Source: Phoronis australis (lineage: Eukaryota; Animalia; Phoronida). Taken from it: a DNA stretch of 64,000 nt. The position numbers and the translations under genes are program-made. The stretch's first letter is position 1. Every line of letters begins with the position of its first letter. The notes below the pieces were generated by a model that saw only the letters and a list, made by a program, of their open reading frames with translations, was not told the DNA's origin and did not search any database. The stretch lies in assembly GCA_002633005.1 (NCBI GenBank), contig NMRA01000417.1, positions 343,183 through 407,182 on the forward strand. Reading direction: 5' to 3'. This document shows, piece by piece, positions 28,620 to 56,624 of the stretch.

Positions 28620-28724
28620 ATGGTTTACTCTTCACTCATTTCAATGTCACTTTACCTTTTAGCCTAGCCAGCCAGCTAGCTGTATCAAGACTATCGTCAC
28701 AATACAGCTAGGTACCACTGTGTG

Positions 28725-30300: not shown

Positions 30301-32310
30301 CGTGACTGTTTTTGGGTGCGTAAGCTATGCTGTAGAGTGCGGGTCGTGTTTGCAAGTCAGTTAGCTGTGTTTGCCGTGTTTTTGAGCGTTGTTCGGGTTG
30401 CCTAAATACAGGCTAAATTGCAGTTTTATTCATGAAAAGTGACTTGAGACTTACACAAGAAATTTAGTCTTACGTTCCCACTTCAAAATCACTGAATACA
30501 TTTTTAAAAAGATATTATGAGTAGTAAATCTCAACCTAAAAATAATTTAAGCAAAAGTAATGGGTATGCCAAAGACTTTGTACTTTTTTGCTAAACTGAG
30601 ATTAAATAAATATTTTTTTTAATATTGCTTCTGCGTTTTCCATGAATGAATTAAGTCGTTAGTCTCTTTTCATCAGTAGACCGCTGTCGTGTACAGTGAT
30701 AAATTACATTTGAATTATGCCGGAACTCTAGTACAACTCTCCGTTTCTTTTTTATATTAACTTTCCGCAACGTGGAGTTTAACTTGTCCTTTGCTTACTT
30801 GTACATTACATTGGATCGTGACAATTGTGATAGTGAACCAAGCAAAGTCTCGATTTTACTGCGGAGTCGGTTAATTTTTAATTTTAAATTTTAATTTCTC
30901 ACCGTTGCTTCTTTTGATAAATTAAAGGCTACCGAACTACACTACCAATACTTCAAATACTTCAATATGTACAACTCACCAATTTTGTCTGACGATGGGT
31001 GCTACAGTGTCTTCTTGAGCTTTCATTCTTTTAAAATCTCTTCAAGAGCTGCGTCAGACCGTTGGCATGTGGACCCACAGAAATCTACCCCTACCTTCTA
31101 GATGTCGCCACCGGCTGTCTTCCTGGTGAGATATTCAAACTTCACACGTTAAGGCAGAGTTGACTGACCCGTGATTTGTGAAGTGTTCACATGCCGTTCG
31201 ATCAGGATGAACATTTCGAGTCTGTTCTACCTTTTAAAAATCACAATTTGCTCCGAGGACGTAATGTTTAGCGCCTGATTTCCCTTTCTCATTAGACGCC
31301 ATACCTGCCTTCTTTTAAAACTTCCATATGTGAACGCGGTAAGTGACCTACAGCCCTTCATTCCACCGTAATCATTTCGCTATGAAAATATTCTGAGTTC
31401 AATTTTGAATTTTTTTTTGTATCAAAGAGGTACTTTCCTACACCGTGAGCTATTTACCGTGATCCATTTGTCTAGGCTCAGGTACGAACGCCGATGTGTG
31501 GATCAAGTTAAGGGGAGAGCTAGGAACCTCGAGGTGGTACAGTCTTCGCTTGCTGCACGCCTCCCAGCCACCGGCACCGGCACTGCACTTTGGACAAAGG
31601 GCAATTTTCCTGATGTACACCCAGAGTAAGCGTTGTGTAGTCTGGTGTTCTGGGGGAAGGGAGGGATGTTACCGTATGCACATTGTGAACTCGCCAAGAC
31701 TTCGGAGAGCTAAGAGCTCGACTGGTTTCCTCAAGTAAAAATTAGGTGACTTCACAATTGAATGAACTAAAGGCTACTTAACCTGCGGTCTAATATCCAA
31801 GACTTAATGTGAGCTGTCACTAGCTCAGCTAATTTTCAATTGAAGGAGCAAGCTGTGCTCGTAGCTTTACGTCTGGGCTGACAATATGGCATAGTTGATA
31901 GAAAAGGGGTATATTAGGAATGATTGTGCGACTCATGATTATTCTGACCTTTGCCAGGCTGAAACGCTGTGCAATAGTTCCCCATGTTTTACATTATTAT
32001 TGACTTTCAATGGGCCGGTCTCAGACCCCAAAACGTGATAATGACCGAGTCACCTTTTGGAGTCTGAAACCAAACATATTGAGTGTGAACCTTAGTATCA
32101 AATAGTGACTGAGATTATGAATGTGATTGCATCAGTCTGTTTTTGTTCGAGATTTTGTGGGAATGCATGCTATCAACATATACGCCAATGCTCAATAGTA
32201 GAAAACGAAATGTGTAGATGCCACGGAAACAGTTTGAGGTCACGACCGCAGCCGACACAGAGGCTGACGTCGGGCAATGGACCGAAACAATCGACGAATC
32301 AGAACGAAAT

Positions 32311-35493: not shown

Positions 35494-37404
35494 ATTGCAG
35501 TGTCCGCTATTCGCGACTGGACTTTGACAGTCTGAGTAAAAGCTTCGGTTACATTTCAAAGTTCGAGACACATATTACCTACACTAAAGCGGCTAGAAAA
35601 TAAAATCGTGGTTCAATAAAAGAATTTATTACTCGTCAAATTCGTTCCCTAAGTCTTCCTAACTAACAAATCAATACTATCTGTCATTGCATATATACTG
35701 TCAACTGATCGACGTCTTCCACTGATGACATCACGTGTCGGAAAATCAAAAAATCATTAATTTTCTTTGAAATTCAAAATTCTTCAATTATTTCCCAAAA
35801 ATAAGTGATTGTTTACTTAGATCTTGTGTTATGAATAAAATTATTGTACACGTTCTAAAAACCTCAAACGTGTAAAAATCCGTTGTAGGAACCCTTTAAA
35901 CGGAATTAAAGCACCACCATCTTGTAGAAACGGTCAACATGGAGATGGCAACAGCCAGTATAGAAAATTATTGACACCTGAGTACAGACTTTTGGTGACT
36001 TTATCATTTTATAATCTGACCAAATTAAAATATAAATAGTACTATTGACCAAGGAAATTCGCTTTTCATTCATCCCGCCTCGACGCCAGATGTTTCTATT
36101 TGCGATCTGACCACATACCCTGACAAGGAATTGATGACAATACATCAAAGCAGGTACGGAGAGGCAATACATCGTCTGTGGACACCAAAGGTGTACCGGC
36201 GATGACCCTGAAATGAGAATGATCAAATGGCTCTATTTTTGATTCACTGTCAAAACCCCAGTTATATTCCTCTTTGTTTTGCTGAACTGAATATGCTAAC
36301 TGTACATATAGGCCACCTGACCAAAAATGTGATCATGACAATACGAAAAACATGGGTGTCAGCTGACGATTTCGTAACATGTGCTCAAGTAAATAGTATA
36401 GTAATAGAATTGAATGGAAATTGGTTGTAAGAGTAAATCCAACTCAAAAACATGAAAAGGGACAAAGTTTATTGACAGGTAAGTATAACTATGAAGTTGT
36501 TAAGGTTTAAGTATTTCAATATGTTATAACTCAAGAGTTGTCGCCATCTCCCGATGATATCCATCGGTTAGCAAATAACCAGCGTGGCTACTAGCCCTAC
36601 AAGCAGGGTATGTGCACCAACTAAGTAAGGATAAGTTAAAATCTGAAGAAATAAGTATATAATAAGTGCGATAAAACAAATTTAGGCTGATCCTCTGGGC
36701 GCATCAGATGAAATGGACCGCGAGAGAGAAATATAGCTGTCTATTGGTTCATCTTATCTGATATAACACTCGGCATATGTCCATATTTCTTTAAATGAAG
36801 TTCGCAAAATGCCATAGCGAACTTTCAAAATGTCCATTTTGAAATTTCAGTGAAAAGCGAAGATTGCCAATAGCTATTGTGAAGCGCTTTGTATATTTAC
36901 GAGGAACAAGGCGATTCCTGACTTATGGCACTCGTCTTCTTATTCATTACTGCAACGGATAATTATCTGCTCGCTCAGTGTTTTACCCTGTGGAAGGTTC
37001 TAACAGTTTCACTGTGTACAGTTTTGATCTTGATCATATTAGCATCATCGTCAATTCCGTTACTCGTATAGTGCCTTTTGGTGTGTCACATGGTCAACGG
37101 CACGGTTCAATGGTTATTATTAGGGGTTATTGACTCGAGCAAACTTGTGACGTGTTTATGAAATTATGTCATCATAGCAACGATAATGAAATCGGCCCAC
37201 ATTGTAGAAGATATTCTGATCTGTCCAAGGAAGCATGCTAAGAACGATTTATCTATCCTGTTCAGAACAAAGTAAATCAGTATAGGTCTTTGAGAATAAA
37301 ACAAGCAGTGATACTCCGCGAATATCGACATTTTCGTGGTCAGGTGGATTCTAGTTGTTACATATTAATATATACATAACGATTGTTTTTTTTGATACTT
37401 GCAG

Positions 37405-37468
37405 ATTGGCTTGGTGAACTCGAACATTTGGCTGTGTTCAACAGGGGATCACAAAGTAGTGAAAAATG
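37405..37468 (+). CDS. PKD1-family (polycystin-1-like) gene, PLAT-domain exon
   Basis: ttgcAG acceptor at 37404. WLGELEHLAVFNRGSQSSEKW matches PLAT LGxLxxIxxxHDNSG..xW. Phase-2 donor TG|GTAGGA. Confidence 0.75.
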
Positions 37469-37798
37469 GTAGGACTTCTTAGAAGATATAGACTATTCTT
37501 GTTCGTATTTATTTCCACGAGCCCCTAGTGGAGTTGTAGGTGGCGCATCTGTGTGTGTTAAAACTTCACTGAAATTGGGATTGCTTACATTTAACGATTG
37601 TTAAGTTATTTTCGTCTAACGAGGAAATAGATTATGTTAAAGAATATCATTAAACAATTCGCTCGAGCTAACATTTACCAAGTTTATTATTATGAGATTT
37701 TAGGAAACATGCTTGCTTTAGTGCCATAAAACAAGATATATTTCAGCATCAGTTGTAACTTCAAACGGCCAATTGATGATATTTGCAATTTATTTAAG

Positions 37799-37927
37799 GC
37801 AACTGAGCGACATCTCCGTGTATGACTTGACGAGACAGGTGAAGTGGTATTTTCCGTGTTTCCGATGGATATGCCCATCTTTGTGGTACCTTTTCCAACC
37901 GTCAAAGGGTGGCGCAGGATTCTGGAG
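37799..37927 (+). CDS. PKD1-family gene, PLAT C-terminal exon
   Basis: Acceptor tatttaAG at 37798 completes the TGG codon. (W)QLSDISVYDLTRQVKWYFPCFRWICPSLW...GFWR matches PLAT WxLxxVxVxD..T...WxFxCxxW. Phase-2 donor AG|GTATTA. Confidence 0.8.
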
Positions 37928-38055
37928 GTATTAATTGCTCATAAACAACTGGTATATTTTTCTGCAAGGAAGTGGAATGCACCCAATCGAGTTCAGAAAT
38001 TGCCATTTGGTACGTTTTTTAATAATTACCTTTTCAACCAGGCATTTTATTTCAG

Positions 38056-41000
38056 AATATTTGTGCGTACGTTTGCCACTGCCTCTGGTCGTTACAACAT
38101 TTGGTACACAGCTTTGACTGGACCCGCCGGCTCGCAGTCAGCCATGACGTGGCTGATGAATGTGACACTGTGCTGGTGTGTCTTGTGTAACATCCTGCTC
38201 GTCTCAATAGTCCCCTTCATAATTCCTTGGGCAGATATCGGTGGGCAGCAGCTGGTCGACTTCTTCGGCTTCAAGTCATTGCGTCACATCACGCTGACCA
38301 GTCACCTGGAGATCAACACGGAGCTGGTACTCCTTGGTTGTATCTTCAACATGAGTGTTTTTGCCCTGAACCTCATCTGGGAGATAATTATTCGCCATAC
38401 GCGCCGCCCAACTGGACAGGTTTACTATGACATGCAAGAGTTTCAAATGTGCTGTGACAAGTGGAAGAAAGAGAAGGCTGCTAAACTTGCTGCAACGAAG
38501 GATCAAAGCTTGTCTTTAAAGCAACGAATGAAACAAATGGCCATCGCGTCAACGACATCATTGAAAAATCTTTCGAGCGGCATGAAACGTAAAAAGGATG
38601 CTATAGCTACATCTGCTATTGGTAAGGCTATGAAATCAGCTTCAAAGAAGCTTTCATCATTAAGTCCAAGCCCTAAACGAAAAGCGTACGAAGCTAAACA
38701 AGTGTTGTCAGCCTCAGTTTCAAAGGTCAAATCAACGCTTGGTAAAAGTCAGCCTACCGAAAGTTTCCAAAAACAAACCAGAGCTGTTGACCCTAGCCAG
38801 GCATTTCCAGCGAAGATGGCAGGCACCGCAAAAAATGCTGTGGATAGCGTGAGGGGTATGTTCTATTGTGGTAAACCCCAAAGCATCGTCCAGCAAACCA
38901 CAAAAACAGCCCAAGCAGTACGCCGGGTATTTCAGAAACTCAAAGATTGCCTTATTCCCAAAAGGTCTGGTGGGGCAAAGCAAACACAACATCTTGCGGC
39001 AATGGAATCAGTGAAGGTTGCCCCGAAAGCTGTTCCTGACGTGATGGAGCGGAAGCTTGATCAATGGTACGAGTCAAAATTTGCGACACCTGGACTTAGA
39101 TCAGAAACTCTTATTGAGGTCAAAGATAAGGAACCAGCATCAGATGGCTTAAAGTCAAAAGCCTTGCATCACGACCCAAGGCAGCCTTTAATCCCGTTTG
39201 TGTTTCCATCCAAAACTGAAAAAAAGAAAACAAAAGGATCACGACTTAAGTTGTCGGTCAGTCTTATGAAGCTGGTCTTGCGTGACGACCAGTTAAAGCG
39301 TCTGTTTTCCGAAATCGGGGAAGAGACGGATCGCTTTGAGAAAAAATCAGACAAACACTACGAATGGGAATTTTATAGAAAACGGAGTGGCAAAAAGTCG
39401 AAAAAGGGTTTGCATCCACTTCAGATGGCGAGCAGCATGCAAGCATTAGTTGAACATGACAGGAAAATGAAGGGGGCGTTGGACAAAATATCGCATTATG
39501 CTGAACAGAGAGAGGAGAAGCTGTCTAAACAGGATGCCTCGTTTTGGCACTTAAGACGAAGAAGTGCTACAAAGCACAATATTGAGGAAGATAAAAAGCT
39601 CATGGTATCTTTTTTAAAGAGTATCAGTAAACGAGAAGATAATGAAATGGTGCCAATTACTGGAGTAAGTGCAGGTGAAACTGTCGCTTCTAAAAAAGAC
39701 ATCTCTCTCCCTGAAACAAAAAATGCGATATCTGAAAAGACGTTGGCAAAGACCGAATCAAAGAAAAGCGTGAAATCGTCTCCCGAAAAAAATATACCAA
39801 AATCCCTAACTAAAATTGCGTCAGGTGAAAGGGTTTCAAAAAACAAAGATAAGTCCGGTAGTGATGAGTCTAAAAAAAGTAAAAAGGGCAAAGCAAACAA
39901 AAAAGACAAGAACAAAAATGAAGAAGATAAAAGTAACGATAAGAAAAAAGTAAAAAAATTAAGTAGTGTTAAGAAAGCAAAAAAGGATAATGAGAAAATT
40001 ACAGATAAAACTTCAAGCAGTGGTATTTCGAAAAAAAACATAGGCAAAAGTAAAAGCAAAGAAAATGAAATAGATAAAGCATCAGTCGGTGGTAAGAAAG
40101 ACAAAAAGGTGAAAGATAAAAAGGGTAAAAAAGATAAAAGCGTCGTTGCCAAGAAGGGCAGTGCAAAAGGCAAGAAAGACAACAAAAAGGATAAGAAGAA
40201 AGACAAGAATAAATCAGCAAATGCATCAAATAAAAACTTTAATAATCCGCCAAGTGAATTGGAAGCAAACCTTTCAGCTGCCATGCAGGACAATAACTAT
40301 GGAATATTTCCAACCAAACATACTCATTACAGCAAAAACATTCCGAATGTGCCCTCTACTGAACATGCCTTAGAGAACTCTGAACTTGGATCTCCGCATA
40401 AACCTAATTTAGATAACACTCATTGTCACGAAAATGGTGGTTCACTTTTGTCACCGCACATAATATCCCATTCAAGAGCGAAACTCACCCATGTCAACGA
40501 CCTAGGGCTTGATCAAGAAGAACCTGGTATGAAAGAAGGCAATACTAAGCGTAATGATCCGGTGATCAAAAGAATAAGAAAGTCTAAAGCGAAAAGTGAC
40601 AACGATGACAGCGAAAAAAAGAAAACAGATGTAAGAAGCATACAAGAACATTCTAGTCATTCAAAGAAACTAAAACCAATTAATAGAATTAAAATACAAA
40701 AGAAAAAACGCTTGTCTAAATGGAATCAGGAATCGTCTGAGAATCAGAGAGAACTAACCAGACATAAAGACAAACAGGCTCGGGAAGTCGAAATGAATGC
40801 ATCTGAGCAACACTACGTAACTGATGACAAACTGTCATTAAATCAAGCCGCGAGGGTAGATGACCTCACAAAACGTAGAAATTCCCAAATTCTTACGGAT
40901 AATTTTGAAATACAAATGAAGCTCCTTGAGAACGTCCACGAATCAAAGGATGAAGTGAAACGCCACCACCATAGCCATAAACCAAAAAAGCACAAATCAA

Positions 41001-44000
41001 GGAGGAAACCTGGGTCCAAGAACATCGTATCGCCCAACAAAAATTATAATAGCTCGCGCCACCCGTCAAAAGATGCAGGGTCTACGGGCGGTTCAACGTT
41101 TGGAGATGGCAACGACGCTGAAATTTCAAAAGACAAAACATTCGATTTCACATACTTTGACATAAAGGCCTACTTTGAAGCGATAGGTGTGGAAGCCAGA
41201 GCCATAAGGCTTCCTCGTTATGTAAACGCCCTCACAGTTGATGATTTAAGTATAAAAAACGCTGTAAACAAAGAATTTATTGATAATCTTATGTCAATTG
41301 ATCACGATGTACAAAGAAGTGTACAGAAAGCAATAGAAGAATATAACGGCAAGAAGAAGACAACCTTATCCACTTGTACAGGTTTAGTTGTTGAAAAAAT
41401 GAAGTCTGGTCGGAAATCAGGGCTCAAGGAACAAACAAGGAAGATTGCTGAGGACAAAAGTTTGAAAAAGTCTTCAAGTGATAAAATCAAGCAAACATGC
41501 TCGTGTTGCCCGTTTGTGAAGAGAAATGATGGTGCTAAAGAAGACCATGCAAGCAAGGTCCATGATCGTAAGATAGATTATAAGGAAACGAAGTTAGAAA
41601 ATATAAACAAGGAAACAGGAGACGCTAAAGAGTGGGATAGCAAAGAGTTACCACAGCATAAAAAGACAACATTGTCGGAAATAGATGACACGCACAAGAA
41701 AACAAGGGCTTCAAAGCAACAGATGAATCATGAATCTTACACGCGCATTGGTCAGGTAAAAAACTTGGAGAGTAAGGACGAGCCAACAAATCAATGTTAC
41801 ATTAACACTGCTGGGAATGCAAATGCAGCTGAAAAGGTCAGCGTAAATGCAAACAACGATCCAGATGATTCTCACAAAGAAAGCAGCTCTTCCTCAGAGA
41901 AGAGTCTTACGGATTATGATGATGCGGTTCCTAAAAAGAAGAAACAAAAAACCATCAAGAAAAAAATAGGAAGTATGATTGACTCGCTTAAACGGAGGTT
42001 ATCAAAAGGCAGTCGGAGAAAGTCGTCTTTCGATCAGACACCCATACAAGTAGAGAGAGGCTTAGATAAAGCGAAGATTCCTAGCAAGCACCCACGGAAA
42101 GGAAGCAAAGATAAACATAAAGACAATATAGGTCGTTCTCTTAAAGACCCAAGAAACAAGAAGATATCTCTCATTGTGCAGCCAAGTGAATCATTTCGTG
42201 GCTACGTCACAGACGAAGTCAAACTTCGATTTCAAGAATTTTCAGTGGAACTCTCTCGAAGATTACTGGTTCTTCAGGATGACCAGCTGCAAGGTCGACG
42301 ATATCTTCGACAAGGAATAGGCGAACCGTTGCCACAAAGGACGTCAGGCAGGAAATCGGGCCAGAGCAGCAAAGACACAACATATCTAGCCAATCTTCAC
42401 AAAGCTACCGATGTTTCAAAGGTTACACTGCAATCGTGCGAAACTCAAGAAAATACCTTTGCGACGATACTGCCAACTGGAATAGACTCGCGGAAGGAGA
42501 CCAAACAAAAACGCAGTGAACAACAAACAGAAGCTTTAACAATTGAAATAAGGCGACAAGTAGATCAATCGAAAAAAAAATTGCTGGACCCCTTACTACT
42601 CCCGGACTATCTACCTCGGACACCACGGTCGTCTAAGATGGAACCCAACCTAGATACGTGTCTTCAAAATGAAACCAGTGACGGTAATGAAAAGAATCTT
42701 AAACGGCATCTCCTTGAGAATAACGCAGACAATGAAAATTTTGGAGAAAAAAGAAATGGTGAAATAAAAATGAAAACTGAAGATATGACCAATCAGTCAC
42801 TAGAGCAAAATGTAAATGCCGACACAGTGGGGGGTGTTGAATTGTCTAAGAATGAAAACGCAAGGGACTTTTCTGGGTACAATTTAGAAGAACCAACGCT
42901 AATGGAAAAGGTAAGCGATATAATGCAGATTAGCCTCGATTCTCTCTCTAAAATGATGCTCCAACAAAACGCAAACTCAACAGGAACATCTAAAAAACAA
43001 GATCGGAATGAATCACACGAAGACCTGTTGGAAAATGCCCGTGCAATTATCGCCTTGTCTGTGTGCAAAATTGCAGAGGAGTTGTCAAAAATGAACGATT
43101 CTGGTGAGTTGAAAGAGATGATAAAGGATTCGTGCATAAAGGTCCGCGTTTCACAAAACGCTCTTCTTGTCGAAGACGTTGCAAAGGCTAAAGCTTCTGG
43201 CAATCTAAGTCGACATGACTACAGTTCTGTTCAGTTCGAACAAGTGAAAGACATGGTTTCGAAAACAGTATCAGGCGTTGCACTAGCCATGAATGTTCGA
43301 AAAGAATCAGTCCCTGTGAAATATCCAATAAGTCAAGAGGTGTGTGATGTTTTGGATCTTACAACTCAAGATCTTGTTTCTCTAATGCTTTTGACAATTT
43401 CTAACACGATCGCTAACGAAGCAGGCACTAAGGGACTCTATGGCACCATCACATACGACGATACTCGAGAACCTATGTCGAGATATATGAGAGCCGCAGT
43501 AGGGCTTGCAAAGTATTCTCTACAGAAAATAGAAGATTCCATGCCTCAAAACATTATCCCTGATAAAAATAAACAGCAAGTGTATATACCTTTTGACGAA
43601 AAGAATGAAGTGTATAAAGTTCTCAAAAGCCTTACAAGCAACGTCGCACAGAATTTCTGCTCCAAACCAAAAAACCAAATTATGTCGAAAAGCGACACAA
43701 AATTATCAAAAGAAGTAACTCAAGAAATTGACCTAGCAGCAAAAGACATGGTGACTGTGATGCTTCTACAAACATCAGGGGTCCTGTCAAGGATGGAACG
43801 TTCTGGAGAGCTACAAGTGGCAGTTGCGCAAAGTATGAAGAGTGCTGATAAGCTGAATAAGTTATCAGACCCATCTCATTTAGGAAAGGTTCTTGGAGTA
43901 GCTCAATCGTCTCTCGGAAAAATCGATGGCGATCTCACGTCCGGAATGACCATTCGCGTCTCAAAAGAGTTGGCAGATGAGCACAGTGTTGAACAATTGA

Positions 44001-47000
44001 GACGGAAGCTCGCTAAGCATATCGTAGACTCTGTAATGACCCAAGCAACCAGCAGTTTGTCGATGACTATACAAGTACCATCAAGCAGTGGCCCTAAAGT
44101 GACAATACATGACCTAATGCGACTTGGTAGAAAGGATCCTCGTTTCGCAATGAGAGTGCTCGTGCAGAAGATCGAGGCTAATCTTAAGAAAACATACGGA
44201 GTTCTTCGAGACTTTGGGGCTAAAGGCGTTATGTATAAAGCCTCCAAGCGAATAGGTACGTTGAAAGACGACTCGTACAAAAGAGCGAAGATGATAGTGG
44301 AAACGACGGTGCATAAAATCTGCAAAACCGTTGACGAAAGTGAAATTCTTAGAGGGGTGAATGAACATGTAAGAAAAGTATTGGACGAATTGAAATGTCT
44401 AATGTGCATTGACTTGATTTCACCTGACTCCGATATGACTGTACAAGCAAAAAAGTCAAAACAAAGGGAACGAGAATGGAAAAAGAAATCGCGTCAGCTC
44501 CAGGAAAGTTTATCTATCAAACAGGAAGTTGCCCAAATTAAAGAATCGTTGATGTACATCGATACAGAGCTAGACAATGCTAGGAAAATTGCAAACGACA
44601 TTGCGTTTGCCCAAATCGAAACAAATAGATCTACCATGAGAAATTTGGATGAAGTGAAAAAGAACCTTGAGAACATTGCATATAATTTACATACTCATGG
44701 CAGTAAAACTGATGTGAAAAGCATTAATGACGTCATTGAACATGCTAAAAAGGTGACTGAGGAAATAACGTCTGTGCATTGTCAAATGACTAAGGCCACA
44801 AGAAGTCATTTAGTTATTGTTCGTCAAAACTTAGACAATTTGGCAAAGAAAATCGTTAATAGAAACAACAACATGGCGGAATTTGACGAAAATCAACTTC
44901 AAAAGCAAAGCTGCCTTTGGTCCCTGCAATCATCGTCGCTAAGCCTGGCGAGAATCGTATGGGACGAAGGCCCTTTCAAAGTCGAGCATGTGTCTGGCCA
45001 GTGCCACACAGCAACTCAGTTAACTGACGAGTTAGATGAAAAGCCTTTGTCGTCCCTCGCGTCAACCGTTGACGTTGCAAATATTTGTCTTCGACGAATC
45101 ACAAAGGAACTTAGCGCTATGGAGTTAGAGCTTCATCCTGTTGCCAACAACGTGTCTTTGCGTGTAGCATTAAAACTATCAAATTCGGCCATGTTAGACA
45201 TAGAGCACGCACTTGCATCTTTCCGTGCTGAAACTGTCAAAGGCTCTAAAAGGCGCGTTTTTCTAAAGCTACCTCTGCAAATTTCGACATTTATCAAATG
45301 CCTGGAAAATGTTTGGTGGCAATTTAAACAACTTTCAAGGCTTATTGGAGGACAAACATTAACACGGAAAGGAAGCGGGGAGACGGTTGTGCACGACGCC
45401 ATGGCTAACATTCTGACCTCTTTGTTACAAGTACGAAGTCAACTACAAAACATCCAGTGTGTGCACTCGACAACTGAAGGTCTTTCACTGAAGGAAACGT
45501 TGTCTAGTACAAGGGACGTGATATCAAATGTAATGAATACTATGAAAAGCCAATGTTCATTAACACAGGACATTCGCGAGTCATTGCAGATTGCAAGTGA
45601 CTTGGCACTTGCGTCGCTCGACAATATAGAGCTAGGTTTATTTCAATGTGTCACTGCCACAAATACAGCACCAACACTTGGATCATTAGAGAATCCTGTT
45701 CTTATAAAGATAGTTGTCTCTTTTATGCTATCTGTCCTTGAAACGCTTATAGAAAACGAAGTCGACCTGGAAAAGGCTACAATTAGCAGTGTCGATGCCA
45801 TGGGCATGCTCAGGACTGTGTTGATTGAATTGGATCGTGAAATAAGCTTAAAATGTAAACCAAGGGATATGAGCCACCTGAGCGTCGCAGAAAGTAATCA
45901 AACAAAACGTGCCATTAACGAGGCTATTACATGCGTGCTTAATGTAGAGCACGTTGTGAGAAATGCCTCCTCGTCAAAAAAATTTCGTATGGATGGTCGA
46001 ACTCTGTTACCTCTTGCCTCAATGTTGAGAAAAACCCAATCTTATAGCCTGTTTGGAAATTCAGAAACATTTGTTAATATAGGTGGTAGATGCTGGTCTT
46101 CTGAAGATCTCGATATCCCGGATGATCCTTATATGGAGTACTTCACGTGTTGGAAGGACTCTGTAGAATTAACAAAAAGTGTAATGACTTCATTGCAAAA
46201 CAACGACAATAATGATGTCCATTTTGTTACCTATAATACTCCTGGTATTCTAACAAGGAGTTATCATGATCTAAGGCGAGAATATTTGAAACTGATGCAA
46301 CTTTCGCTGTGTGCAATGGAAGACGAGTTCGACGATTTGGTTATTGTTGATGATATGAGCACAAGGAACAACCTTTCAAACGAAAATGCACAAACAAATA
46401 ATGATGATTCAACCAAGTTGGTTAGGAAAGCCTCCTTGCTTGTGAAAGGAATCAAGTGTTTGGTAGATGGCGAATTGGTGTTCTCTTCAAATGATCGCCG
46501 TCAAGCAGACGATAACGATTTTCTGTTCGATATGCCAACGGAACTTAACAAAAACAATGCTAACGCATGTGCCAATTCTGTACTTCTCCCAGTGTTTGTC
46601 CAGTTTGCAAAGGAAATCGTCACACACTCGCTGAGTACGCCACGGACGATCCAAATGAGAAGCATTAACCAAAAACAAAGCTCATTTGCTTTAGTTGAGA
46701 CAGTCAAGAAAACTATTTTGGACAGTATTGAGCCATTGCACTCACACAAACTTGTGTCAAGAGTGGCCTCGTATTTACAGGAACAGTGTGATGCAGCAAA
46801 ACGTGACGAACAAGTTGATATGGAAACTATGAAAGACGCACTAACAAAGGTAATGAAGGCACTCGAAACATTTAAAGACGGAAACGCCACAGCCTTCAAG
46901 ACTCCAGAAGCTGTTCTCGGTCATAGAGAAAAAAATACAACTGATCACGACGTTCACCTGAATTGTGCCATATTTCTTGTTACAAAGTCTTTAGAGGAAA

Positions 47001-50000
47001 TATGCGAAGAACTTGACATGAAAGGGAAACAAATAAAAGAACACATCATTCCCTCTTCTACAACTTTGGATACCTCGTCGGTATGTTTGACGCAATCCAC
47101 TCAAGCTACCGTTATTAACGGCCAGGTTGAACTGGAAAACAATCAACCTATGGTCCGTTCGGCGAAAGAAAGTGCGAAAAGCCTGATTTCATGTGCGTTG
47201 ACTGAAATCGAAAAAAAAGGTCTGAAAGGGTCTGATTTAGGCGTCAGAGCTGCAAATCCTGATGTTTGTCTAAAATTGTATGGAAATTGTTCTGCTTGCA
47301 CTGTTGCTGCACAGTGTTTGGTTAGGTCGAATTTATTAGATGTTGCCATCAGCAACTTTGCTGGAGACAAAAATGCTCCAGGCCACTGTGAAAGCTGCCG
47401 TTCCGTTGAATTGACAATGAAGACGCCTTCTCAACAAGGTCACGCCAGCGTAGGTTCTCAAAGTCAACCATTTGTAGCTTCACTAGGTACGTCGACCTCT
47501 CTCATACCCCGTCAGTCGAAAGGAACGCAAGTGCGAACTCTTCGCGGTTTACACAGTAGCTTGACGTCAAGTGTCTCTGTGGGTACTCAAGTCCATGCAA
47601 GACGCAAATCAGTGTACAAATCCCGCTCGGAGGAGTGGAGAATTTCCATGGATGAAATAGCCAAAACGGCTAGTACTTTACTACAAAACATTGTTAGCAA
47701 CGCCGAAAACAAAAAGCGGTTAGAAAAATCCTCCATGAAATCTCGCAACGTAGTTTGCAGATGTCTTCTCAAAATAGATGATGTCTTGAAGGACGCTCTT
47801 GGCAAGGATTTTGGTGTCTTAGATGCCTTGAAATACAAAAAGTCTGGTGAAATTGCCAGTTCTCTGGTGAAAGCTATTTGTGCAGACATAGAACAGGGCT
47901 TGGAAGCAGTCGCCGACGATAAAGACTCGTTAGGCTTGCAACATAAATTGGGTCAGAATAAATTGCACAATTCATTTAAGGCCGATTTTTGCGCAGATCT
48001 ATATTCGACTGTATTCAAAGGGCATGATTTCTTTGAAAACAATCTAGGTTCGTCAAACCAAACTGTCGAGGAAGCATTAGAGACTATTGCGATATTACCC
48101 GAGAACAGTGAAAACATGTCAATAAAACAAAATGAATCGAATGCTGAGGGTGAAAGTTCTAACCTGCATGAGATGGTCAGTGACACAAGACTCGTCTCTG
48201 CAGATGATTCTGATGGAAAAGCAACTGCAAGTTTGTTTTATACTCCAGGTAGGGAGGTTGTACAGTTAGACACAAGCCGAACATATACTGTGCAAACTGC
48301 CTTGCAAGGTCACAAGACGTGGAATCCTGGCGAAAGTTGTGACATACTCGAGGGAGCGGAAGATCAAATGAGACGAAGGCAGTCACTGAGCGTTGGCGGG
48401 GTTGACTTCTTTCAAGCACGGGATGACAGTCTGCTGTCAGCGTCTTTCCCCAAGATGAGGTTTCTAATTTTGCCCTCGTCTCATTCTAGTCAAAAAATGA
48501 TATTACCACCCGTCGATATCTCTCAAAGTAACTCAAAGAACCGAGCAATAATGAAGCAGGACTCGTCTGTGAATGATGTCTTAACCAACGCAGTAGCAAT
48601 GACTAATTTACCTGAAGAAAAGGAATGTGGCAAAAACAGTCTTATGTTAAGAACTGTTATTTTAGACGGAGTCAAACTCCGGGATGACTCGTGCTATCAG
48701 CACAGTCTGACGCCATCTGAGCCATCGACACAACTTCCAGTAAGAAATTACACATCCACAGACCCTGTTATAACATCCACTATGACAGCAACAATTCGTC
48801 CTACCACATTAACAAGTCCAAATCAATCGCTGGATGATGAACGGCAACACTTTTTGGAAACCCTATGCAGCTCTTATATGCAACTAGACACGATTGCAAC
48901 TCATCCACAGTGCAGCTCTAGCGACTTCCAGATATTCGAAAACAGTAGAGGAGACGTTGAAACATCTTTAGATATTTTAGGTGGTGCAAAACAAAAACGT
49001 AAGCGTCGCACTTCAATGAAGTTACCTAACGAGAAAACGGATATTGTGGATGGTACACCGGGAACCAGAAACATTATTTCAATGGATCCGCTCAAAGTTG
49101 ACCACAGATTCGTCATCACCTCAGTTGATGAGTTAAAGAATATGAAAAATCAAGCCAAACAAGGAGATGATTGCGATCCCAGTCTTACAAGGGCTAGAAC
49201 TCTTGTGAAAAATAGTTTGCAGGAGCTTCAAGACTCCAATGATACAGACTGGACTGTAAAAAATGTCAATGATGTCCAAGAGCTAAGAAATATTCAGCTG
49301 TGTTCTAAAAGTGCTGACATCAAAGATGTGGCGTCTGAAATTGTCAGAAAATCTTTCAGTCGTGCAAAGCTACAGTCTCGCTCATCTGGACGTATCGATG
49401 GTAAATCAGTGTCTGTGAAAAGATTGCGAACAACTGTGCACCCAAAGATAGATGCAATTCGGCGTCGTATGTTCAAAGATTCCGAACTGTCGTGTCAGAA
49501 GAGTGACCCTGGTCCTCTTCTTCCAATAGACGTAGTGAAACGAAAGTCGGTTTCTAATGACGTGATGACAGACTTTAAACTGGTGAACAGAAAAATTATA
49601 GTTACTGCCAGCTCAAGTGTTGACACTCTAGGCATGGACTTGGAACCAGTGGAAGATGATACAATGCCAGCGAATGTACAAAAAAGTGACGTCATTGAAT
49701 CATCGTGTAGCGAGAACACAAAACTAGAGGAAAAAATAAAATGTGACAAAGACATTCTAAAAACGTTATCGGGAAATTTAAGAACCGATGAAAAAGTTCT
49801 TCCACTAAAAACTAGTACATGCTTTTCTGCCAATGGCGCTACAATATCTTGTGAAGCAGAAACAACCAACACAAAAAGACAAAGCAGCCTAGGTATACGA
49901 CTAAGAATGTCATCTGAGTCTCCAGAAAGTCTACGGAATGCTTCGTGGATGTTAGTGGCGCAAGTAGAGTGTGAAGTGCAAGCGTTATTGAATAGAATGT

Positions 50001-53000
50001 TTAGGCCCATGTCTCTGCCCGCTATGAACAGACGTCCTGTTTTTGACGAACACTCTCTTCGAGTACTTCAAACTAAAAATACAAGCAACCATCCAATCGA
50101 GAACAGGATTACTCAGCAAGAACAAACGTTTAGCAATGCCAATCAAAATGACAGGCTCAGAGACATTGCAACTAGTACAACTCAGCTGATTGTCCCAGCA
50201 GACCCAGCGCAAGTGTCTGAGAAAAATGCTCAAGGGAGACGGTATGCAGTCGTTGAGTCAAAAAGTGCAACCTCGCTGCTGACGAATAAGGGAGAAAGCA
50301 AAGCAAACAACTTCAAAGCAGTCTCAGTCTTGCGCAACATCAAGCGATCTACTTGTGGTGTGCTCAGTGAAATACTAAGTTGTCAAGAAAAACATAACGT
50401 TGTCGTCATGGCACCAAGCACAGCTATCGGTAGTGATGGTTCTTCAATAAAGGACTTCGTAAAGCACGGAACAACGGTCAATTCTAGCCAGAACAGTGGA
50501 CATTCGTCCATCATCTCTGCCGCTTGCAGGACGTGTGAAGACACTGAATCCATGAGCCCGCTCTCCCTTCCGAGTCCCGAGTCTAATAAGCTACTGCTTC
50601 GCACTCGCCGACCCTTTACAAGGAGATTGTCGACACACGGCTTAACTGAGCATGTTCGGCCAAGTGTAGACGAGACGTTACCTCTGCTACCGGTGTCACA
50701 TGAAGGAGAGCTTGATACAACGGCCGTTCTTCACGAACGCTTATTGGATAAATTTGATGATGACACGTATGACATTAAAGGTCCGCTTACTCAAGTAAGC
50801 GAAAGAGCACTATCTTCTTCAAAATTCACATCCACTGAAACTATAACATCGGTGAGCTCTTTACTCTCAAAAATGGTTCATCATGATAGCACACCATGTA
50901 CATTAGGTTCAAGTGACTTGCAACGGTGGTCAACTTTTTCCGTGGCAACAGAGAATGAAAGGACAGCATATGATGTCGTGGACACCAAGTTGACTAAGAA
51001 AACTGCCCTGTCAGTTATAATGGACTATGTGTCGGAGTCTGAAAGCGAAGACCTAGGAAATACGAAAGGTGACATGCAATCACATAGGAGTAATGAGGGT
51101 ATCAGCATAGATGTGCAACCAGCAGATGAAAAGCCACCAAGTGATCAAAATTCATGTACAAATTTTCAGGAGCTGAAGCATTCTAGAAGCATTAAGCCGG
51201 TCAATCCTGATTTATTATTGCTTTGTTACGTCAACCCCGGAACAAAGCAATCAACTGATCCGCTTTCAGACTTCTACAAACCCCGTAACAGATGTCTGGA
51301 TACCTTGAGAATTGGACAAACTGGACATGAAGTATCCGAAGTTTCGCCAAACAAGGAAATAGTTGAGGATGCAAAATCATCGTCGGTTACGGTTAGGGAT
51401 GCGAGTACAGTCCCCAACGAGAAAGAAGTAGTTATCTCCATGCCAGGCGAAGAATCACCAATTTCTGCTAAGTCCGATATTTTTTATGGTGTGTCTGGAA
51501 GTAAGTCTTCTCATGCCAGCTCACCATTTAAAATCCGCCGTAATCCCGTGGACGGAACATACGACAATCGCATAAGGCACAAAAGTGGCCAGATGAGTGC
51601 TATTGATGAAGAAATTTGCCAGGCAACAACACCCAATAATGTTGTCACTAATCGACACGAGCTGATGGCAGAGCCTCAAGGCACTTCACTAAGCCGAACA
51701 AGTACGTGCGAAGATATTATTCAAATGGAACATCCAATCAGTGTAGATGACGCGATACGCAATGTGTGTGACCATCTGATGGATGGCGAAAGTATGGCTA
51801 GTTTATTTTTGAAGAAAGGTGACCATGAAGAAAGTTCTGCTGACCACAACAATTTTGCTGACCTTAAAGACTTTCAGTCACAGAATGGTGCATGGGAGAG
51901 GCATCATGACGTACACATTGAATCTACTGCTGAACGGTCAAGTGGAATGCCAGTTTGTAGACTCCAGTCCATGAATAAGGAAGTGGATAGTCCCAAAGAT
52001 TGTGCACTTACGATTGACATTGATGCTACATCGCGTGCAACGGAAAGGTTAGGTACCATTGTTGGGAATGAACAGAAGACAAATGTTGCCCAAGAAGTCT
52101 CGCATGAATCAAACAGTCCAACTGCTCACGTTATGATTCCTGTCCAATTTCCAAATAACATCTTACTCAATACGCCTGAACTTTGCCGTACAAGCCAGCC
52201 ACTCAACAAAGCACAGCTTCCTTCAAGAACCATAAAAAGATGTATTGCAGAAAATGAACATTTCAGTTCAGGAATGCATTGGGATAAAACTATTGGTGGA
52301 AAGCTGGAACGATTTATGTATCAAATACAGGAACTGGAGTCTACCTGTTGTGCACTTGGTGTTTCGCACGGGACCTCTTCCGTGACCAAACTGTTTACTG
52401 CCATCTCGAGCTTCAATCGCATGCCTTGCGGAGGAAGAAATGCCTTCAAGAAGCTATTCGAAGCCCTTGAGCCGCTAGAAAGTCCGCAGTCGCTGAAGAA
52501 TGTGTCCGTTGTTCTCTCAATGTTTACATCTACCATGAACGAACTCTGTGATTTGTCAACTGGTAACTTTGACTCCTCGAACTTATCCCAGAAGGTCGAA
52601 ATGTTTTGCTCTTTGATGGCGCAGCTGTCTTTGCATATTCAGAATCAGCAACCGAAGTTACCAGATAGTGGCGCTATCCATCCACCAGTTTTGTCAACGA
52701 GAGAGTCTTCGAATTCACACTTCAGTCGTATAAACCTTAGCATCAACAAGCGTATGCACTCTGTGAATAATTCACCAAACCACGGGCACGAAGAAAATTC
52801 GAAGGAATGTGTGAACAGTCGGACCATTTCTCTTGTAACGAAACAAGACGCGAAAAACGGGAATAGCATGGCCTCCAGTGATGAAACCCATAAGAAAGGT
52901 CATGGACAACGAGTAGAAGATTTACCCCCGAGGGATCCTATGCGTGCAGGAAAGAGTTTAAAGTTTCCAAGAGCACCAGCGGCAAGTGGTATAGAAGACT

Positions 53001-53909
53001 CAACTCCTGGATCGTCAACATCAGTCGTGTCAGTTGGTGATCAGCCTGCCGACTCCTGGTGGTTCATGACGAGTTCTACTGCTGGAACTTTGCAGCTTAT
53101 GAAAAACCAATTGAGCGGGGTGGAGAAGGATCGTCGACTCGTCAGCTTTAAAACTAGAGACGCAGCACATTGGAAAATCTCCAATGCTTCTGTGCCAAAG
53201 ATATTTAGACAAGATGACTATCAGCCAAGACGACAAACAGACCAGCCAAAAACACCCATAAGCTATCACGGATCACAAGAGAGCACGGCGACCGTCTGCA
53301 AGTTGTCACCACCATATAAACTAGACAGCAGTGATGCTTCAAGGGTAGAGGCTATCGACGAATACAGGTGTAAGAAAAGGTCAAATGAGAATGCCTATGG
53401 GTTGTCGAGCATAAGCCGGATAATTGCATCATCTGCGAGTAGACGGAAACTGTCGGAACAGTTCAAACCAAAAGAGCAGAAGCTCAACGTTTCGACCGGT
53501 ACTGTGGAACCAGAGGCAGCGGCTTCACCCATGTGTGCAGTTCCGTTGCAGCACATCCCAGTTCAAGATGGCTCTGTGTTGGCTGACTCAGGTTCTTCCA
53601 CACTTGTCTCGAGTTCTTCAACATCGTTCTACGCCACCACTGATCTTGATGAAGACACATCACGGACATCTTTAGTACAAATCGCTCTGTCTAAAGAGTC
53701 GGCAGGTACAACGGAGAAAGCCCAGAAACTCTTACCTGTAGATTGTGACGCCGTTGCTTCGGATCACGAGTCGTCCAATTCTCTTTTTCATGGAGCAAGT
53801 CCAGGTTCAAACACGTCTACTGTGTCGTCAGGGGCAACCACGCTTATCGATGGTTATCAGGCTATTTCTGCGTCTGCTGGAGCTACTCATCGGGAAGGAG
53901 ATTTGCAAG
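38056..53909 (+). CDS. PKD1-family gene, giant 15,854-nt exon (TM2, TM3 and most of the TM3-TM4 insertion)
   Basis: Lies in the 5373-codon ORF 37844-53965. Acceptor ttttatttcAG at 38055 is phase-compatible with the previous exon. YNIWYTALTGPAGSQSAMTWLMNVTLCWCVLCNILLVSIVPF aligns to polycystin-1 HIWxS..RP..S.FTRxQR..C..LL (TM2); LVLLGCIFNMSVFALNLIWEIIIRHTR fits TM3. Phase-1 donor CAAG|GTAAGT at 53909/10. Confidence 0.88.
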
Positions 53910-53994
53910 GTAAGTCGGTCTGCTCAGGTAGTCAGCTGAGCATCGTGTGGCTTCAACACTTATAATCTTTGCGATTAAAAAGGGTCCCTGTTGC

Positions 53995-54070
53995 ATTCTC
54001 TCTATCTCTCTCTCCCTATCCCTTCCAACGTCCCACTCCCTCCCCCTCTCCCCCCCTCTCTCTCCTTCTG
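53995..54070. repeat. CT/C-rich microsatellite inside intron 53910-54410
   Basis: Directly visible; supports this interval being intronic. Confidence 0.85.
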
Positions 54071-54410
54071 CTGTTGGAAACAGAAAAGAGTAGAGCATGA
54101 GCAGAATTATGATCAGCTTAACACACGAGGGGATCGTTATTTCACTTGTGGGGTCGTGTTTAAGACATCGCTATCAAATACCACTCTGTGTCGTTTTTCA
54201 AAGACAAGGAACGATTTGGGATCATTTTACCGGGTCCAGGCTTTGTGCTCAGGCGCACTCGATACGACATCTTTTGACTAGACATCTTGAATATTCACCA
54301 ACATTGCGATTATGTCATTTTGTTGTCGTGAACCAACGCACACAAAACGTTTTTCATGAGATATCATATTAAGTGCAATGACCTTAATATGTTCATTTTA
54401 AATGCTGTAG

Positions 54411-56119
54411 ATGGGCTGGGTACTTTTGCACCGCGATCCGGAAGCCTTGATGCCGCGTTGACGCAGTCATCCCCGAGTACAATGCTAATGGAGCTGGCGG
54501 TCAGAAACCCCACTTTACAGAGTAAACTGGAACAGTTCCTCAACAGATACGACCAAAATCTGCCCGATCCTTTTTTCGAATGCCTCACGGAATACATCAA
54601 AGAGCTGTTGTCCGAGGCACGTACAGAACGCCTTCAAAGTATGGAGAAAAGTCTTCTTAGTCAAGCCTTATCCAGCCCTTTCATACAATCGGTAATAACA
54701 AACAATGTTATTGCCGAGCAATGGAATGTTGTAATAGAAGAACGAATACAAAGCGAGGGCCCATCAGAGGTGGTTGTTGACCACGCGCCAACATCCAAGC
54801 CTTCGTCGCCACCGCCGATTTATGACAGAAACAACAACGCTCGAGTATCGGACTATCAAAAAAATAACTCGGCCAATACCATGGTGTCGGACAGTCTTGA
54901 AAGTCAAGAGTTGATTTCAAATTCCATCCGCTACTGGCAGCACAAGATTCAGCGTGGAGCACGCAGCGCTATGGATGCAACAGTACGGGCCATACGCTTT
55001 ATGTCAGGAGATGCTGTCGCTGACGATCGCAGCACATCCACGCCGAAAGCCAATGAGACTTTCCCTTCTAATATGAGAATAGTCCGTGGCCAGATGTCTT
55101 ATCCTGGTAACGTAACTACTGGACGCATGACTCATGACACAGCTAGCTGTAAATCATCTTCCTCTGAGATACTGACAATGCCTCGCCACTGTGAGCCCCA
55201 TAACAAACCTTCGCACTCAACCCAACCAAAACTGTCAACCTTGTTTTACCCGGACGCAACACGAGCCATTCAGCTGTCAAGCAAGCAACCCACAGATGAA
55301 AATCAAAATGCTAGTCCCAGTCTCATCCCAAAATGCGTGAGTCCAGGCCTGTTTACCATTCCTAATCAAACTCCGTATGTCAACGAAAACGCGGTTTATC
55401 GTGATTACGACGGAACCTACTCAGTTATCCCAAGAGCCAATGACCAATTTCTGGAGGAGTGTGCCGAGATAACGTTCGCCCGTATACTCGATCACTATGG
55501 TTTTTTCGCCACCAAGGAGCAGTGCGATCGTTGCATGGGAGATATTTATATCTTTCTAAAGCGTGCCCAAGATGAGATTTCGAAGTATTCGGAGCAGTAC
55601 GAGAAACTGCAGAAAAAAGCTCAGGAATGCATCAGATACAAACTCAGTGACATCGACGTCGATGTCAAAACCGTGGAAGATACTATCCGCGTGCTCGCGT
55701 GTGTCCAAACTGACCTCGACGACATCAAGGACATGCTGCTAGATTGGAACAGCGCCACACACTTACCCTCGCATCTCACAATCATAAACGATCAGCACAC
55801 GTGGTTTCCCAAGTTTCCGGATGCCGATAAAGCTGAGCAAGAAGAATATCTGACATATATCGAGAACCTTTACTACGAAACCAGGCAAAAGACATGGCTA
55901 CCTGCGTGGGTGTCCTACTTCATGTTTCTAATCCTATTCTCATCCGGATCAGTCTCCCTTATTCTTTTGGCTCTATTCGGCATGGGCATGGCGCCTTCTA
56001 TGTCCTATCAGTGGGTAGTGTCTGCTACAGTCTGCCTGACTGAACACGTACTTTACTTTGAACTTTCTAAAGTGTTTATGATAGCAATATATGCTGGCTT
56101 TAAGAGGACGTATTTGTAG
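54411..56119 (+). CDS. PKD1-family gene, terminal exon (end of insertion, TM4-TM5, stop)
   Basis: Acceptor gctgtAG at 54410 gives G+AT=Asp in frame with ORF 54356-56119. Ends WLPAWVSYFMFLILFSSGSVSLILLALFGMGMAPSMSYQWVVSATVCLTEHVLYFELSKVFMIAIYAGFKRTYL*, matching polycystin-1 LPxW...TM4...G....xWxxS...S....EPxKV...A. AATAAA at 56476. Confidence 0.85.
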
Positions 56120-56624
56120 CTAGATTTGTTTTGATACTATTTACATCAGTGCAATGTGCAAAAACAGGAAACTAAAGGATACTAAAACTTTATCTATTTA
56201 TTTATTTAATTTTGTAGAAAAGAACTTTGTTTCCAAGTAAAATTTTATCATTTCCAACTTGCAGTTTTATTATGACAAGAAAATAACGTCCATATAGTGT
56301 GGTTGGTAGTAAAGAAAAGTGAAGTTGGGTGGAACAGGTTGGGCAAAGACGACAGTCAGGTTAAAACTCCACGTCTGTTGACTTGCACGTGCGCTACACA
56401 CGCTTCACTCAGCACACGTTCTTGTTCTTGTTGATTAAAGATTTCGATGCCATTTTAATAAGATAATTAGTTACTAATAAACTTGCCATTGTTACTGTAG
56501 TCACCACGAAGATTTGATCTCTGTGGGCGACCGTCGTTCGTAGGTAGAAAATGCTTATCCATATTCAAAATTAAAATTACGTTGTTGTTTGTATGACATA
56601 TTCTGAGCATGGAGCTAAGAGCTT

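Follow-up and report, generated by a model that had tools for sequence, protein, structure and literature searches.

A giant loop of a probable PKD1-like protein in Phoronis australis carries an enriched array of AKAP-like helices: a possible multivalent docking scaffold

Introduction

Does the very long open frame at this locus of the phoronid Phoronis australis encode an array of docking helices for D/D domains, or do its many short amphipathic helices resemble those of AKAPs for some other reason? The question arises from a first-pass annotation of the window (the whole stretch of 64,000 nucleotides that was analysed), which read the helices as a possible multivalent PKA anchor on a polycystin membrane tether. 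That interpretation is partly supported by the analyses reported here. The exon structure, the expression pattern, the stop after a TM5-like segment, and the enrichment of both the helix motif and RRx[ST] sites are observed. Our leading but tentative reading, held at a little short of even confidence, is that of a membrane-tethered multivalent scaffold with some ten helices predicted to dock D/D domains. All features below lie on the forward strand.

Results

Gene structure and expression

A stop-free frame of 5,379 codons spans 37826-53962. In the aligned RNA reads, 15,854 bases (38056..53909) form a single unbroken coding exon, which contains TM2, TM3 and about 5,170 loop residues; read depth is 23-115 in every bin, and there are no internal joints among those listed. 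A joint supported by 65 and 38 reads leads from this exon to the last one (54411..56177), which encodes the loop end, TM4, TM5 and, after the TM5-like segment, the stop codon (56117-56119). Molecule ends pile up at 56177, the transcript's 3' end lies near that position, and no joint leading out of the last exon is among the RNA joints listed.

Upstream, a PLAT/LH2-like domain is split over four exons. The most upstream exon placed (31047..31125; linker and first PLAT strand, …YPYLLDVATGCLP-G) lies outside both RNA read alignments, and it is therefore predicted, from its AG/GT ends and its open frame into the next exon. The N-terminal half of the domain is encoded at 31476..31625, where the Pfam PLAT match (E 0.034-0.049) falls below the curated cut-off; 44 and 34 reads with loose ends at 37405 agree with the end of this exon. 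The middle of the domain (WLGELEHLAVFNRG…, 37405..37468) is linked to 37799 by a GT..AG joint with 41 and 26 reads, and its end (…WYFPCFRWI…, 37799..37927) to 38056 by a GT..AG joint with 27 and 27 reads. Because 8,309 of the 9,083 reads from one run match at 99% or better and the frame is kept across joints, we reject an assembly artefact or a pseudogene.

Those 9,083 reads come from run X1; a further 7,903 align from X2 and 0 from X3, so that the gene is expressed in two of the three raw-read RNA runs and off in the third. Neighbouring repeat DNA draws 3,775 reads from X3, versus 4,321 from X1 and 3,883 from X2. A sperm or ciliary setting, as the annotation proposed, gains nothing from this pattern, since the run labels are coded and convey only two runs on and one off. 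Among 40 listed read differences, 32 are carried by both X1 and X2 (11 synonymous, 21 non-synonymous), for a pN/pS of 0.5-0.7 that is not significant.

The membrane core

The host protein is probably a shortened, PKD1-like member of the polycystin-1 family of membrane proteins, with a sequence that ends ahead of the channel half. Following the PLAT-like domain, four hydrophobic segments occur in the PKD1 order TM2-TM5, as in PKD1-type proteins: TM2 (38165..38224; Kyte-Doolittle 2.59, numbered from its position after PLAT), TM3 and then a basic RHTRRP, an inside signal (38312..38392; Kyte-Doolittle 1.68), and, within the last exon, TM4 (55898-55984) and TM5 (56012-56101). For the last exon, the first ESM Atlas match is 'polycystic kidney disease protein 1-like 2' (0.91, 198/256 features), at a recognition value of 1700 that is below 2300 and weak alone. 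From these features together we infer PKD1 family membership and topology; the 5,662 residues between TM3 and TM4 would then form a loop that is likely cytosolic.

The proposed polycystin tether draws support from the PLAT-like domain and the PKD1-like membrane segments. The further label 'REJ-type' draws none: there is no Pfam match to REJ or GPS among 52 selected ORFs of the window, and no GPS motif in its six frames. A search by donor site and hydrophobicity yields no candidate for a TM1 exon, and no gene-specific joints are listed in 17200-29870, a repeat-dominated interval in which single exons with both neighbours beyond it could hide among 1,130 loose ends. The channel half (TM6-TM11 and the TOP domain) is absent, the stop codon preceding any such region. 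The protein is like PKD1L2, PKDREJ and sea-urchin SpREJ in having a PLAT-like domain and then hydrophobic segments in PKD1 order, but differs from PKD1-like polycystins in ending after TM5 without TOP or channel half, in its insert between TM3 and TM4, and in that REJ, GPS and TM1 are not found in the window. Truncated members of the PKD1 family with 1, 2 or 6 TM have been described (PMC1934368). Since the channel half is missing, the five-helix core would act as an anchor and not as a pore.

Homologue searches return nothing when the last exon is compared with longer proteins, residues 1600-3300 encoded by the giant exon with proteins of 2,906-9,247 aa, TM4-5 with viral contigs, or 42902-46501 with 1.84 billion representatives; this animal group may be missing from the libraries searched. 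Sequence comparison with the PDB gives 0 matches save two irrelevant ones (E 0.67 and 1.1). In Pfam, the AKAP, RII-binding and FSIP2 families find no match among 26 pieces, even at E values as high as 5.

The helices of the loop

All eight peptides quoted by the annotation are exact translations in the forward frame. Three helices are of class A: QLRRKLAKHIVDSVMTQA (43994..44047), with an Ala end and the best AKAP-IS match; IAKTASTLLQNIVSNA (47657..47704), the sole match to the strictest motif used; and IKDVASEIVRKSFSRA (49319..49366), the best fit to the published consensus at 19/28. Those of class B are LLENARAIIALSVCKI (43025..43072), with an Ile end, an N-terminal Leu and a consensus score of 18/28, and, placed by their motif matches, AKMIVETTVHKI (44285..44320), AIFLVTKSLEEI (46967..47002; absent from the annotation's list), AKSLISCALTEI (47174..47209), ASSLVKAICADI (47855..47890) and ARTLVKNSLQEL (49193..49228; in a polar region). 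A looser match, AQCLVRSNLLDV (47309..47344), is doubtful, being only weakly amphipathic: its hydrophobic moment is 0.07, and those of the other nine are 0.25-0.50. An eleventh core match (53720) contains a proline and is left out of the column counts below.

The layout of the loop is uneven. Its Lys/Arg-rich first third (38411..42900) is predicted to be disordered, its charge/hydropathy index, taken over blocks of 100 aa, being negative in 14 of 15, while the more hydrophobic, helix-dense block that follows (42900..47400) is predicted to be ordered, with a positive index in 14 of 15. Five of the ten matches fall inside this block of 1,500 residues.

Randomization tests

In the 5,662-aa loop the annotation's motif has nine matches (the eight quoted peptides and AIFLVTKSLEEI at 46967), versus 0.23-0.52 in shuffled loops and 0 in the reversed loop; five types of shuffle were drawn 500 times each, two of them preserving the hydrophobic/polar pattern. 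Its density is 4.25 per 1,000 aa in the region that the annotation delimited (43037..49366) and 0.15 per 1,000 aa in a control set of 127 E. coli K-12 ORFs (8 matches in 53,806 aa). Because this motif was fitted to the very examples that it describes, we also ran tests that were not fitted to them.

Among generic amphipathic frames, 13 of 32 begin with Ala in the exon loop (background 6.0%), and 47 of 388 do so in E. coli (background 9.5%). When 345 spacings are combined with 20 anchor residues, the top-scoring combination has Ala as its anchor and hydrophobic residues at +3, +4, +8 and +11, the same spacing as in AKAPs. With every combination allowed to compete, this score is equalled in 4 of 600 pattern-preserving shuffles. 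The annotation's identification of the spacing with the AKAP consensus is supported by a graded score as well. The published LxxxAxxIVxxAIxxA reaches a z of 2.9-3.7 in the loop, and its score is attained by 1 of 300 and 0 of 300 pattern-preserving nulls. Both the vinculin-site consensus (z 0.9-1.9; 59 and 10 of 300) and the leucine heptad (z 0.8-0.9; 65 and 76 of 300) fit more poorly. The reversed AKAP consensus also exceeds the null (13 and 0 of 300), and direction is thus less clear-cut on the graded score. As for the proposed likeness to AKAP-IS, the 17-mer at 43997 is the loop's best match (score 30, p 0.03-0.04 from 150 shuffles each, with AKAP-IS as the annotation quoted it), a result that is modest alone; the maxima in E. 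coli and in the reversed loop are both 28.

The core pattern enriched here is that of an RII anchor, an amphipathic helix of 14-18 residues in which Ala, two aliphatic residues as a pair and a small one take the consensus positions, and nine of the ten helices have moments of 0.25-0.50. Positions on which no selection was made agree with it as well: +7 is small or beta-branched in nine (background 0.42), +10 is polar in all ten and +1 is S, K or R in eight, for residue sets picked after the matches were known, and there are no prolines. An N-terminal Leu or Ile is found in three (43037, 47669, 49331), equal to the background of 0.28; two have a hydrophobic residue at position 18, and six end in Ile or Leu rather than Ala. 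None has the FA or YA (F or Y before the Ala at helix start) at helix positions 1-2 that marks RI-type anchoring under the rule given in PMC12083921, and we therefore reject RI-type anchoring. No helix is diagnostic alone: the top consensus score is 19/28, and the E. coli set has 10 windows at 18 or above and 4 at 20 or above.

A broad 'Hou-like' AKAP expression, for which no relevant printed source was found, shows no enrichment (8 matches versus 5-9). The strict expression used beside it is of the 'Vij' kind.

RRx[ST] sites

The annotation also saw many basophilic sites in the loop, and the count bears this out: there are 10 RRx[ST] sites, which are of PKA type, versus 2.5 expected, a fourfold excess, and 2 in the reversed loop. 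Their placement is another matter, since several lie outside 43037..49366, namely RRRS (39554), KRRLS (41990), RRKSS (42014) and both RRLS (41993, 50621), with KRRLS and the first RRLS being a single site. Four sites occur in the disordered first third (39554, 40874, 41993, 42014) and the others at 45092, 47600, 48374, 49004, 50621 and 53228 (45092..53239).

Discussion

The proposed scaffold and its alternatives

If the helices do dock D/D domains, some of them would be free and would occupy a D/D dimer's groove, the Ala-ending helices at 44012, 47669 and 49331 being the best candidates. The partner may be PKA RII, or an RII-like or DPY-30-like protein, and an anchored kinase could phosphorylate the RRx[ST] sites on the same arm. 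About half of our confidence in docking goes to PKA itself. PKA is a less secure partner than D/D domains in general because helices of like pattern are bound by ropporin/SPA17- and DPY-30-type domains (PMC3494852, PMC12203939). For DPY-30-type domains four helical turns are enough, according to the same papers, and PKA R subunits are said in PMC12203939 to require five.

The most serious alternative, which we consider quite possible, is that the helices are units of folded hairpins or bundles in a long cytosolic, talin-rod-like arm, with a likeness to AKAPs that comes from Ala-rich packing and with some helices perhaps serving as cryptic sites exposed on unfolding. The hydrophobic, helix-dense block is what such an arm would contain, as are 19 looser matches, including a recurring S-L-x-x-I-[EC]-x-x-L tail, three matches back to back (47669, 47741, 47855), the further hydrophobic residue at +15 in five of ten helices, and a weak duplication, within the loop, of an adjacent helix (43328 versus 43703; E 0.003, 38% over 29 aa). 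That pair is the only one at such an E among 9 self-matches, and we reject the idea that the motif arose by tandem duplication in recent times. Talin sets a precedent: it too has many amphipathic helices, several matching the AKAP motif in silico, and PMC10990152 describes 4 of 62 bundle helices as predicted RII sites, the true site being a different, cryptic helix among helices buried in bundles. A sequence relation between talin and the loop is not evident, however. Folded E. coli proteins have no such excess of the motif: their counts, helix-rich chemotaxis proteins and MukB included, are 0.93-1.04 fold those of their own shuffles, in a control that is bacterial and not drawn from eukaryotic bundles. 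Heptad and vinculin-site patterns also fit less well, and the helices at 49193 and 49331 sit where the order index is negative. Single-sequence AlphaFold models are uninformative on packing, both for 42842-44401 (pLDDT 37, almost all helix, low confidence) and for 47585-47959 (pLDDT 49, helical).

That the repeated helices serve to bind some different partner or to self-assemble, in a sheath-like scaffold whose RRx[ST] sites would make it a kinase substrate and not an anchor, strikes us as improbable. Such a role would accommodate a directional motif in copies without mutual homology, as well as the giant exon, the on/off expression and the loose constraint. The style is presumably that of FSIP2. 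Yet the FSIP2 Pfam domain is absent from the pieces searched, and the motif fits D/D-binding spacing specifically. Chance, that is, a degenerate motif fitted by eye to a long, fast-evolving loop, is very improbable, for although motif and region limits were picked after the sequence was seen and single helices score no better than the bacterial background, the look-elsewhere test, the whole-loop tests with a published consensus and the unselected positions all speak against it.

Docking of D/D domains thus remains our preferred reading. We regard as rather unlikely, on the other hand, its fullest form: a channel-less polycystin-1 relative whose single-exon cytosolic arm of some 5,700 residues offers ten anchoring sites to PKA or to further D/D proteins and has PKA sites of its own. 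Such a protein would be a membrane-rooted cAMP scaffold of a single cell type, possibly sperm, and would belong to a broader invertebrate class of helix-array D/D scaffolds.

Significance and known anchoring systems

If the docking reading is true, a polycystin-type membrane protein has some ten docking helices built in, which makes it more multivalent than any membrane-integral anchor that we found described, and a channel-family protein has come to serve solely as a tether. Those known AKAPs that have several anchoring helices have two or a few of them, and the known contact of polycystins with PKA goes only via a separate AKAP, which is AKAP150 in PMC10226274 (citing Choi 2011). Even as bundle elements, the helices would belong to a PKD1-like protein that lacks the channel half, that gave no homologue in the searches and whose gene has an exon of 15.9 kb, an unusual gene structure that is verified.

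AKAP220/AKAP11 and SKIP/SPHKAP are also large and for the most part of low complexity, and their short amphipathic helices have the same spacing; such multi-helix AKAPs are said to hold several PKA holoenzymes (PMC12083921, PMC3682517). Binding is shown for their two or few helices, whereas the ten or so here are predicted from sequence; moreover, most of these lack the first consensus Leu, none has the RI-type FA, and all are built into a multi-pass membrane protein. The D/D-interacting RSP3, AKAP28/AKAP14 and CFAP65 of cilia and flagella also have repeats of paired hydrophobics (PMC3494852, PMC12203939), but are axonemal and not membrane proteins. GPR161 is a ciliary membrane receptor with a PKA-anchoring helix of its own, and differs in being a GPCR with one RI-binding helix, located in its tail (PMC10226274). 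On the side of the possible partners, 32 natural RII-type D/D sequences were gathered (PF02197, E 1e-15).

A repeated helix in the probably cytosolic insert

The first-pass annotation proposed an array of AKAP-like helices at 43037..49366. All eight peptides that it quoted translate exactly on the + strand, within one stop-free stretch of that frame (37826-53962, 5,379 codons), and its motif far exceeds shuffled controls. The 5,662-residue loop, the insert between TM3 and TM4 of the probably PKD1-like protein, holds nine matches, the ninth at 46967, whereas the means of five shuffling schemes (500 trials each, two of the schemes preserving the hydrophobic/polar pattern) are 0.23-0.52. The reversed loop has no match, and an E. 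coli K-12 set of 127 ORFs (53,806 aa from four 50-kb stretches) has eight, or 0.15 per 1,000 aa, a rate not raised above that in its own shuffles.

Since the motif and the region limits had been picked by eye, we tested the whole exon-encoded part of the loop (5,166 aa) without fitting to the examples. Among its generic frames x-x-x-H-H-x-x-x-H-x-x-H, alanine stands first in 13 of 32 (background 6.0%); the corresponding fractions are 47/388 in E. coli (background 9.5%) and 2/20 in the reversed loop. The top template from 345 helix-face spacings and 20 anchor residues is Ala with +3, +4, +8 and +11, and 4 of 600 pattern-preserving shuffles score equally in this look-elsewhere control. The same spacing is that of the consensus LxxxAxxIVxxAIxxA, printed in the available excerpt of PMC3682517. 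When the ten top-scoring windows are averaged and compared with two nulls of 300 each, the nulls reach the loop's score for this AKAP consensus in 1/300 and 0/300 trials, and for its reversal, also above null, in 13/300 and 0/300. Weaker than the AKAP consensus are a leucine heptad (65/300 and 76/300) and the vinculin-site consensus (59/300 and 10/300). The basophilic sites are also in excess: RRx[ST], the PKA-type site, occurs 10 times against 2.5 expected, and twice in the reversed loop. Taken together, the shuffle, E. coli, look-elsewhere, consensus and RRx[ST] tests show that both the recurring helix and the surplus of kinase sites are genuine.

Gene structure and expression

Three raw-read RNA runs, all labelled as one species (X1, X2, X3), were aligned to 36600-56599, giving 9,083, 7,903 and 0 reads; the contig run X4 gives six short pieces. 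Nearly all X1 and X2 reads come from a + strand transcript, at about 700 per million. X3 does contain the organism, because 3,775 of its reads align to the neighbouring 17200-29870 (4,321 for X1, 3,883 for X2). The tissue labels of the runs are coded, and expression in testis is therefore a guess.

RNA reads give + strand GT..AG joints at 37468-37799, 37927-38056 and 53909-54411. The giant exon between the latter two (38056-53909, 15,854 bases) is single, with no internal joint among those listed. Loose read ends link 37405 to an exon ending at 31625, and the 3' end of the transcript lies near 56177. Once joined, the exons keep an open frame from 31047, where a + strand exon is predicted only, to a stop at 56117-56119, and encode at least 5,994 residues. 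Among the 40 read differences listed of 70, 32 are fixed and carried by X1 and X2; these comprise 11 synonymous and 21 non-synonymous changes (pN/pS 0.5-0.7, not significantly below 1), and none falls in a motif core, numbers too small to inform.

A minor splice form, 37927 to 56265 (3 reads, X1 only), skips the giant and last exons and would end SFIMTRK-stop directly after PLAT. An extra A in the A-run at 44448 (13/77 and 5/81 reads), which would change the reading frame between helices three and four, is probably polymerase slippage.

Family and topology

We infer a PKD1-like family and topology from several features. One exon has a weak PLAT match in Pfam (E 0.034-0.049, below cut-off), it is followed, in PKD1 order, by four hydrophobic segments of which the second and third flank the insert, and the nearest ESM Atlas cluster of the last exon is PKD1-like 2 (score 0.91, weak alone according to the tool). 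The channel half of a polycystin is absent from the gene. The established topology, with PLAT in the first intracellular loop (excerpt of PMC9672506), and the basic residues after TM3 together suggest that the insert is cytosolic. REJ, GPS and TM1 were not found within the window, so the earlier description of a REJ-type sperm polycystin lacks support there. The family in sea urchins includes members with 1, 2 or 6 TM, and most of its members there are not testis-restricted, according to PMC1934368. Inspection of the last exon reveals two coiled-coil-like helices (55571-55747) just upstream of TM4.

Protein database searches with the last exon and with parts of the loop returned no homologues, and no gene piece matched AKAP, RII-binding or FSIP2 families. 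Self-comparison of the loop gives, among nine self-matches, one weak duplication (43328/43703, E 0.003).

Likeness to anchoring helices

No helix is diagnostic of an AKAP by itself. The best AKAP-consensus window in the loop scores 19/28; the E. coli set has 10 windows of at least 18 and 4 of at least 20. A broad AKAP regular expression shows no enrichment in the loop. The proposed resemblance to AKAP-IS of the helix at 43997 is present but modest (p 0.03-0.04).

Column counts cover ten core hits, an eleventh, proline-containing, being left out. Position +7 is small or beta-branched in 9/10, +10 polar in 10/10 and +1 S/K/R in 8/10, with these residue sets picked after the hits were seen. The leading Leu/Ile is present in only three, and position 18 is hydrophobic in two. 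The FA motif, which marks RI anchors (excerpt of PMC12083921), occurs in none of the ten. By their ends, the hits form two groups. Those at 44012, 47669 and 49331 finish with Ala and by sequence look most like RII anchors; most others end in Ile/Leu, often extending as S-L-x-x-I-[EC]-x-x-L. PKA R subunits require five turns and DPY-30-type domains four (excerpt of PMC12203939), and no residue discriminates RIIa- from DPY-30-binding helices (excerpt of PMC3494852); sequence therefore cannot name the D/D partner.

Candidate mechanism and alternatives

The leading reading, a serious possibility though short of probable, is that the truncated core of a polycystin tethers an extended cytosolic arm, several of whose helices would be free and would dock D/D dimers. 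The core would hold the arm at the membrane, PKA RII would be the partner in about half of this docking reading, and the RRx[ST] sites could be local substrates. Among precedents, the polycystin-AKAP150 complex and GPR161 come closest (excerpt of PMC10226274). A polycystin with built-in anchoring helices was not found in listings of the open-access literature, and the available part of PMC12083921, on AKAP evolution, does not contain the word polycystin.

The helices may instead pack into helical bundles, a doubtful but substantial alternative. Talin is the warning case for predicting RII sites from helix sequence: four of its bundle helices were predicted sites, and the true site is a different, buried helix (excerpt of PMC10990152). 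Counted by position, six core hits of the ten (43037, 44012, 44285, 46967, 47174 and the doubtful 47309) fall within 42900-47400, a hydrophobic and helix-dense region; hits further along occupy a more polar stretch of mixed character, and loop residues 1-1,500 are basic and predicted to be disordered. Single-sequence structure models are helical, with low confidence.

Service to another partner, or self-assembly, seems unlikely. That the pattern arose by chance is very improbable, given the controls above.

Other features of the window

A small Ly6/uPAR three-finger protein gene is indicated on the + strand by two exon-like pieces (12325-12501 and 13265-13479). The first has a signal-like start and a Cys-rich domain (Pfam UPAR_LY6 E 4e-4, Toxin_TOLIP E 2e-4); the second ends CCSNKDMCN, followed by a hydrophobic tail. 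Near-identical duplications at 14022-14916 (446-bp tandem, 97%) and 15506-16170 / 17194-17860 (about 1,690 bp apart, 96-100%) adjoin N's and are likely an assembly of two haplotypes. A GT..AG joint from 20177 to 22133, in all three RNA runs (6, 2 and 12 reads), belongs either to a separate spliced transcript or to a transcribed repeat. At 27577, about 105-111 loose-ended - strand reads in X1 and X2, with none in X3 among those listed, are a repeat piece inside another transcript that has the on/off pattern of the giant-exon gene. Two 13-bp satellite arrays (58185-58350 and 63297-63455) have 12-13 copies at 99% identity, and a non-LTR retrotransposon, broken across several frames, occupies about 60794-63090 on the - strand (RVT_1 E 2e-10, zf-RVT E 3e-9).
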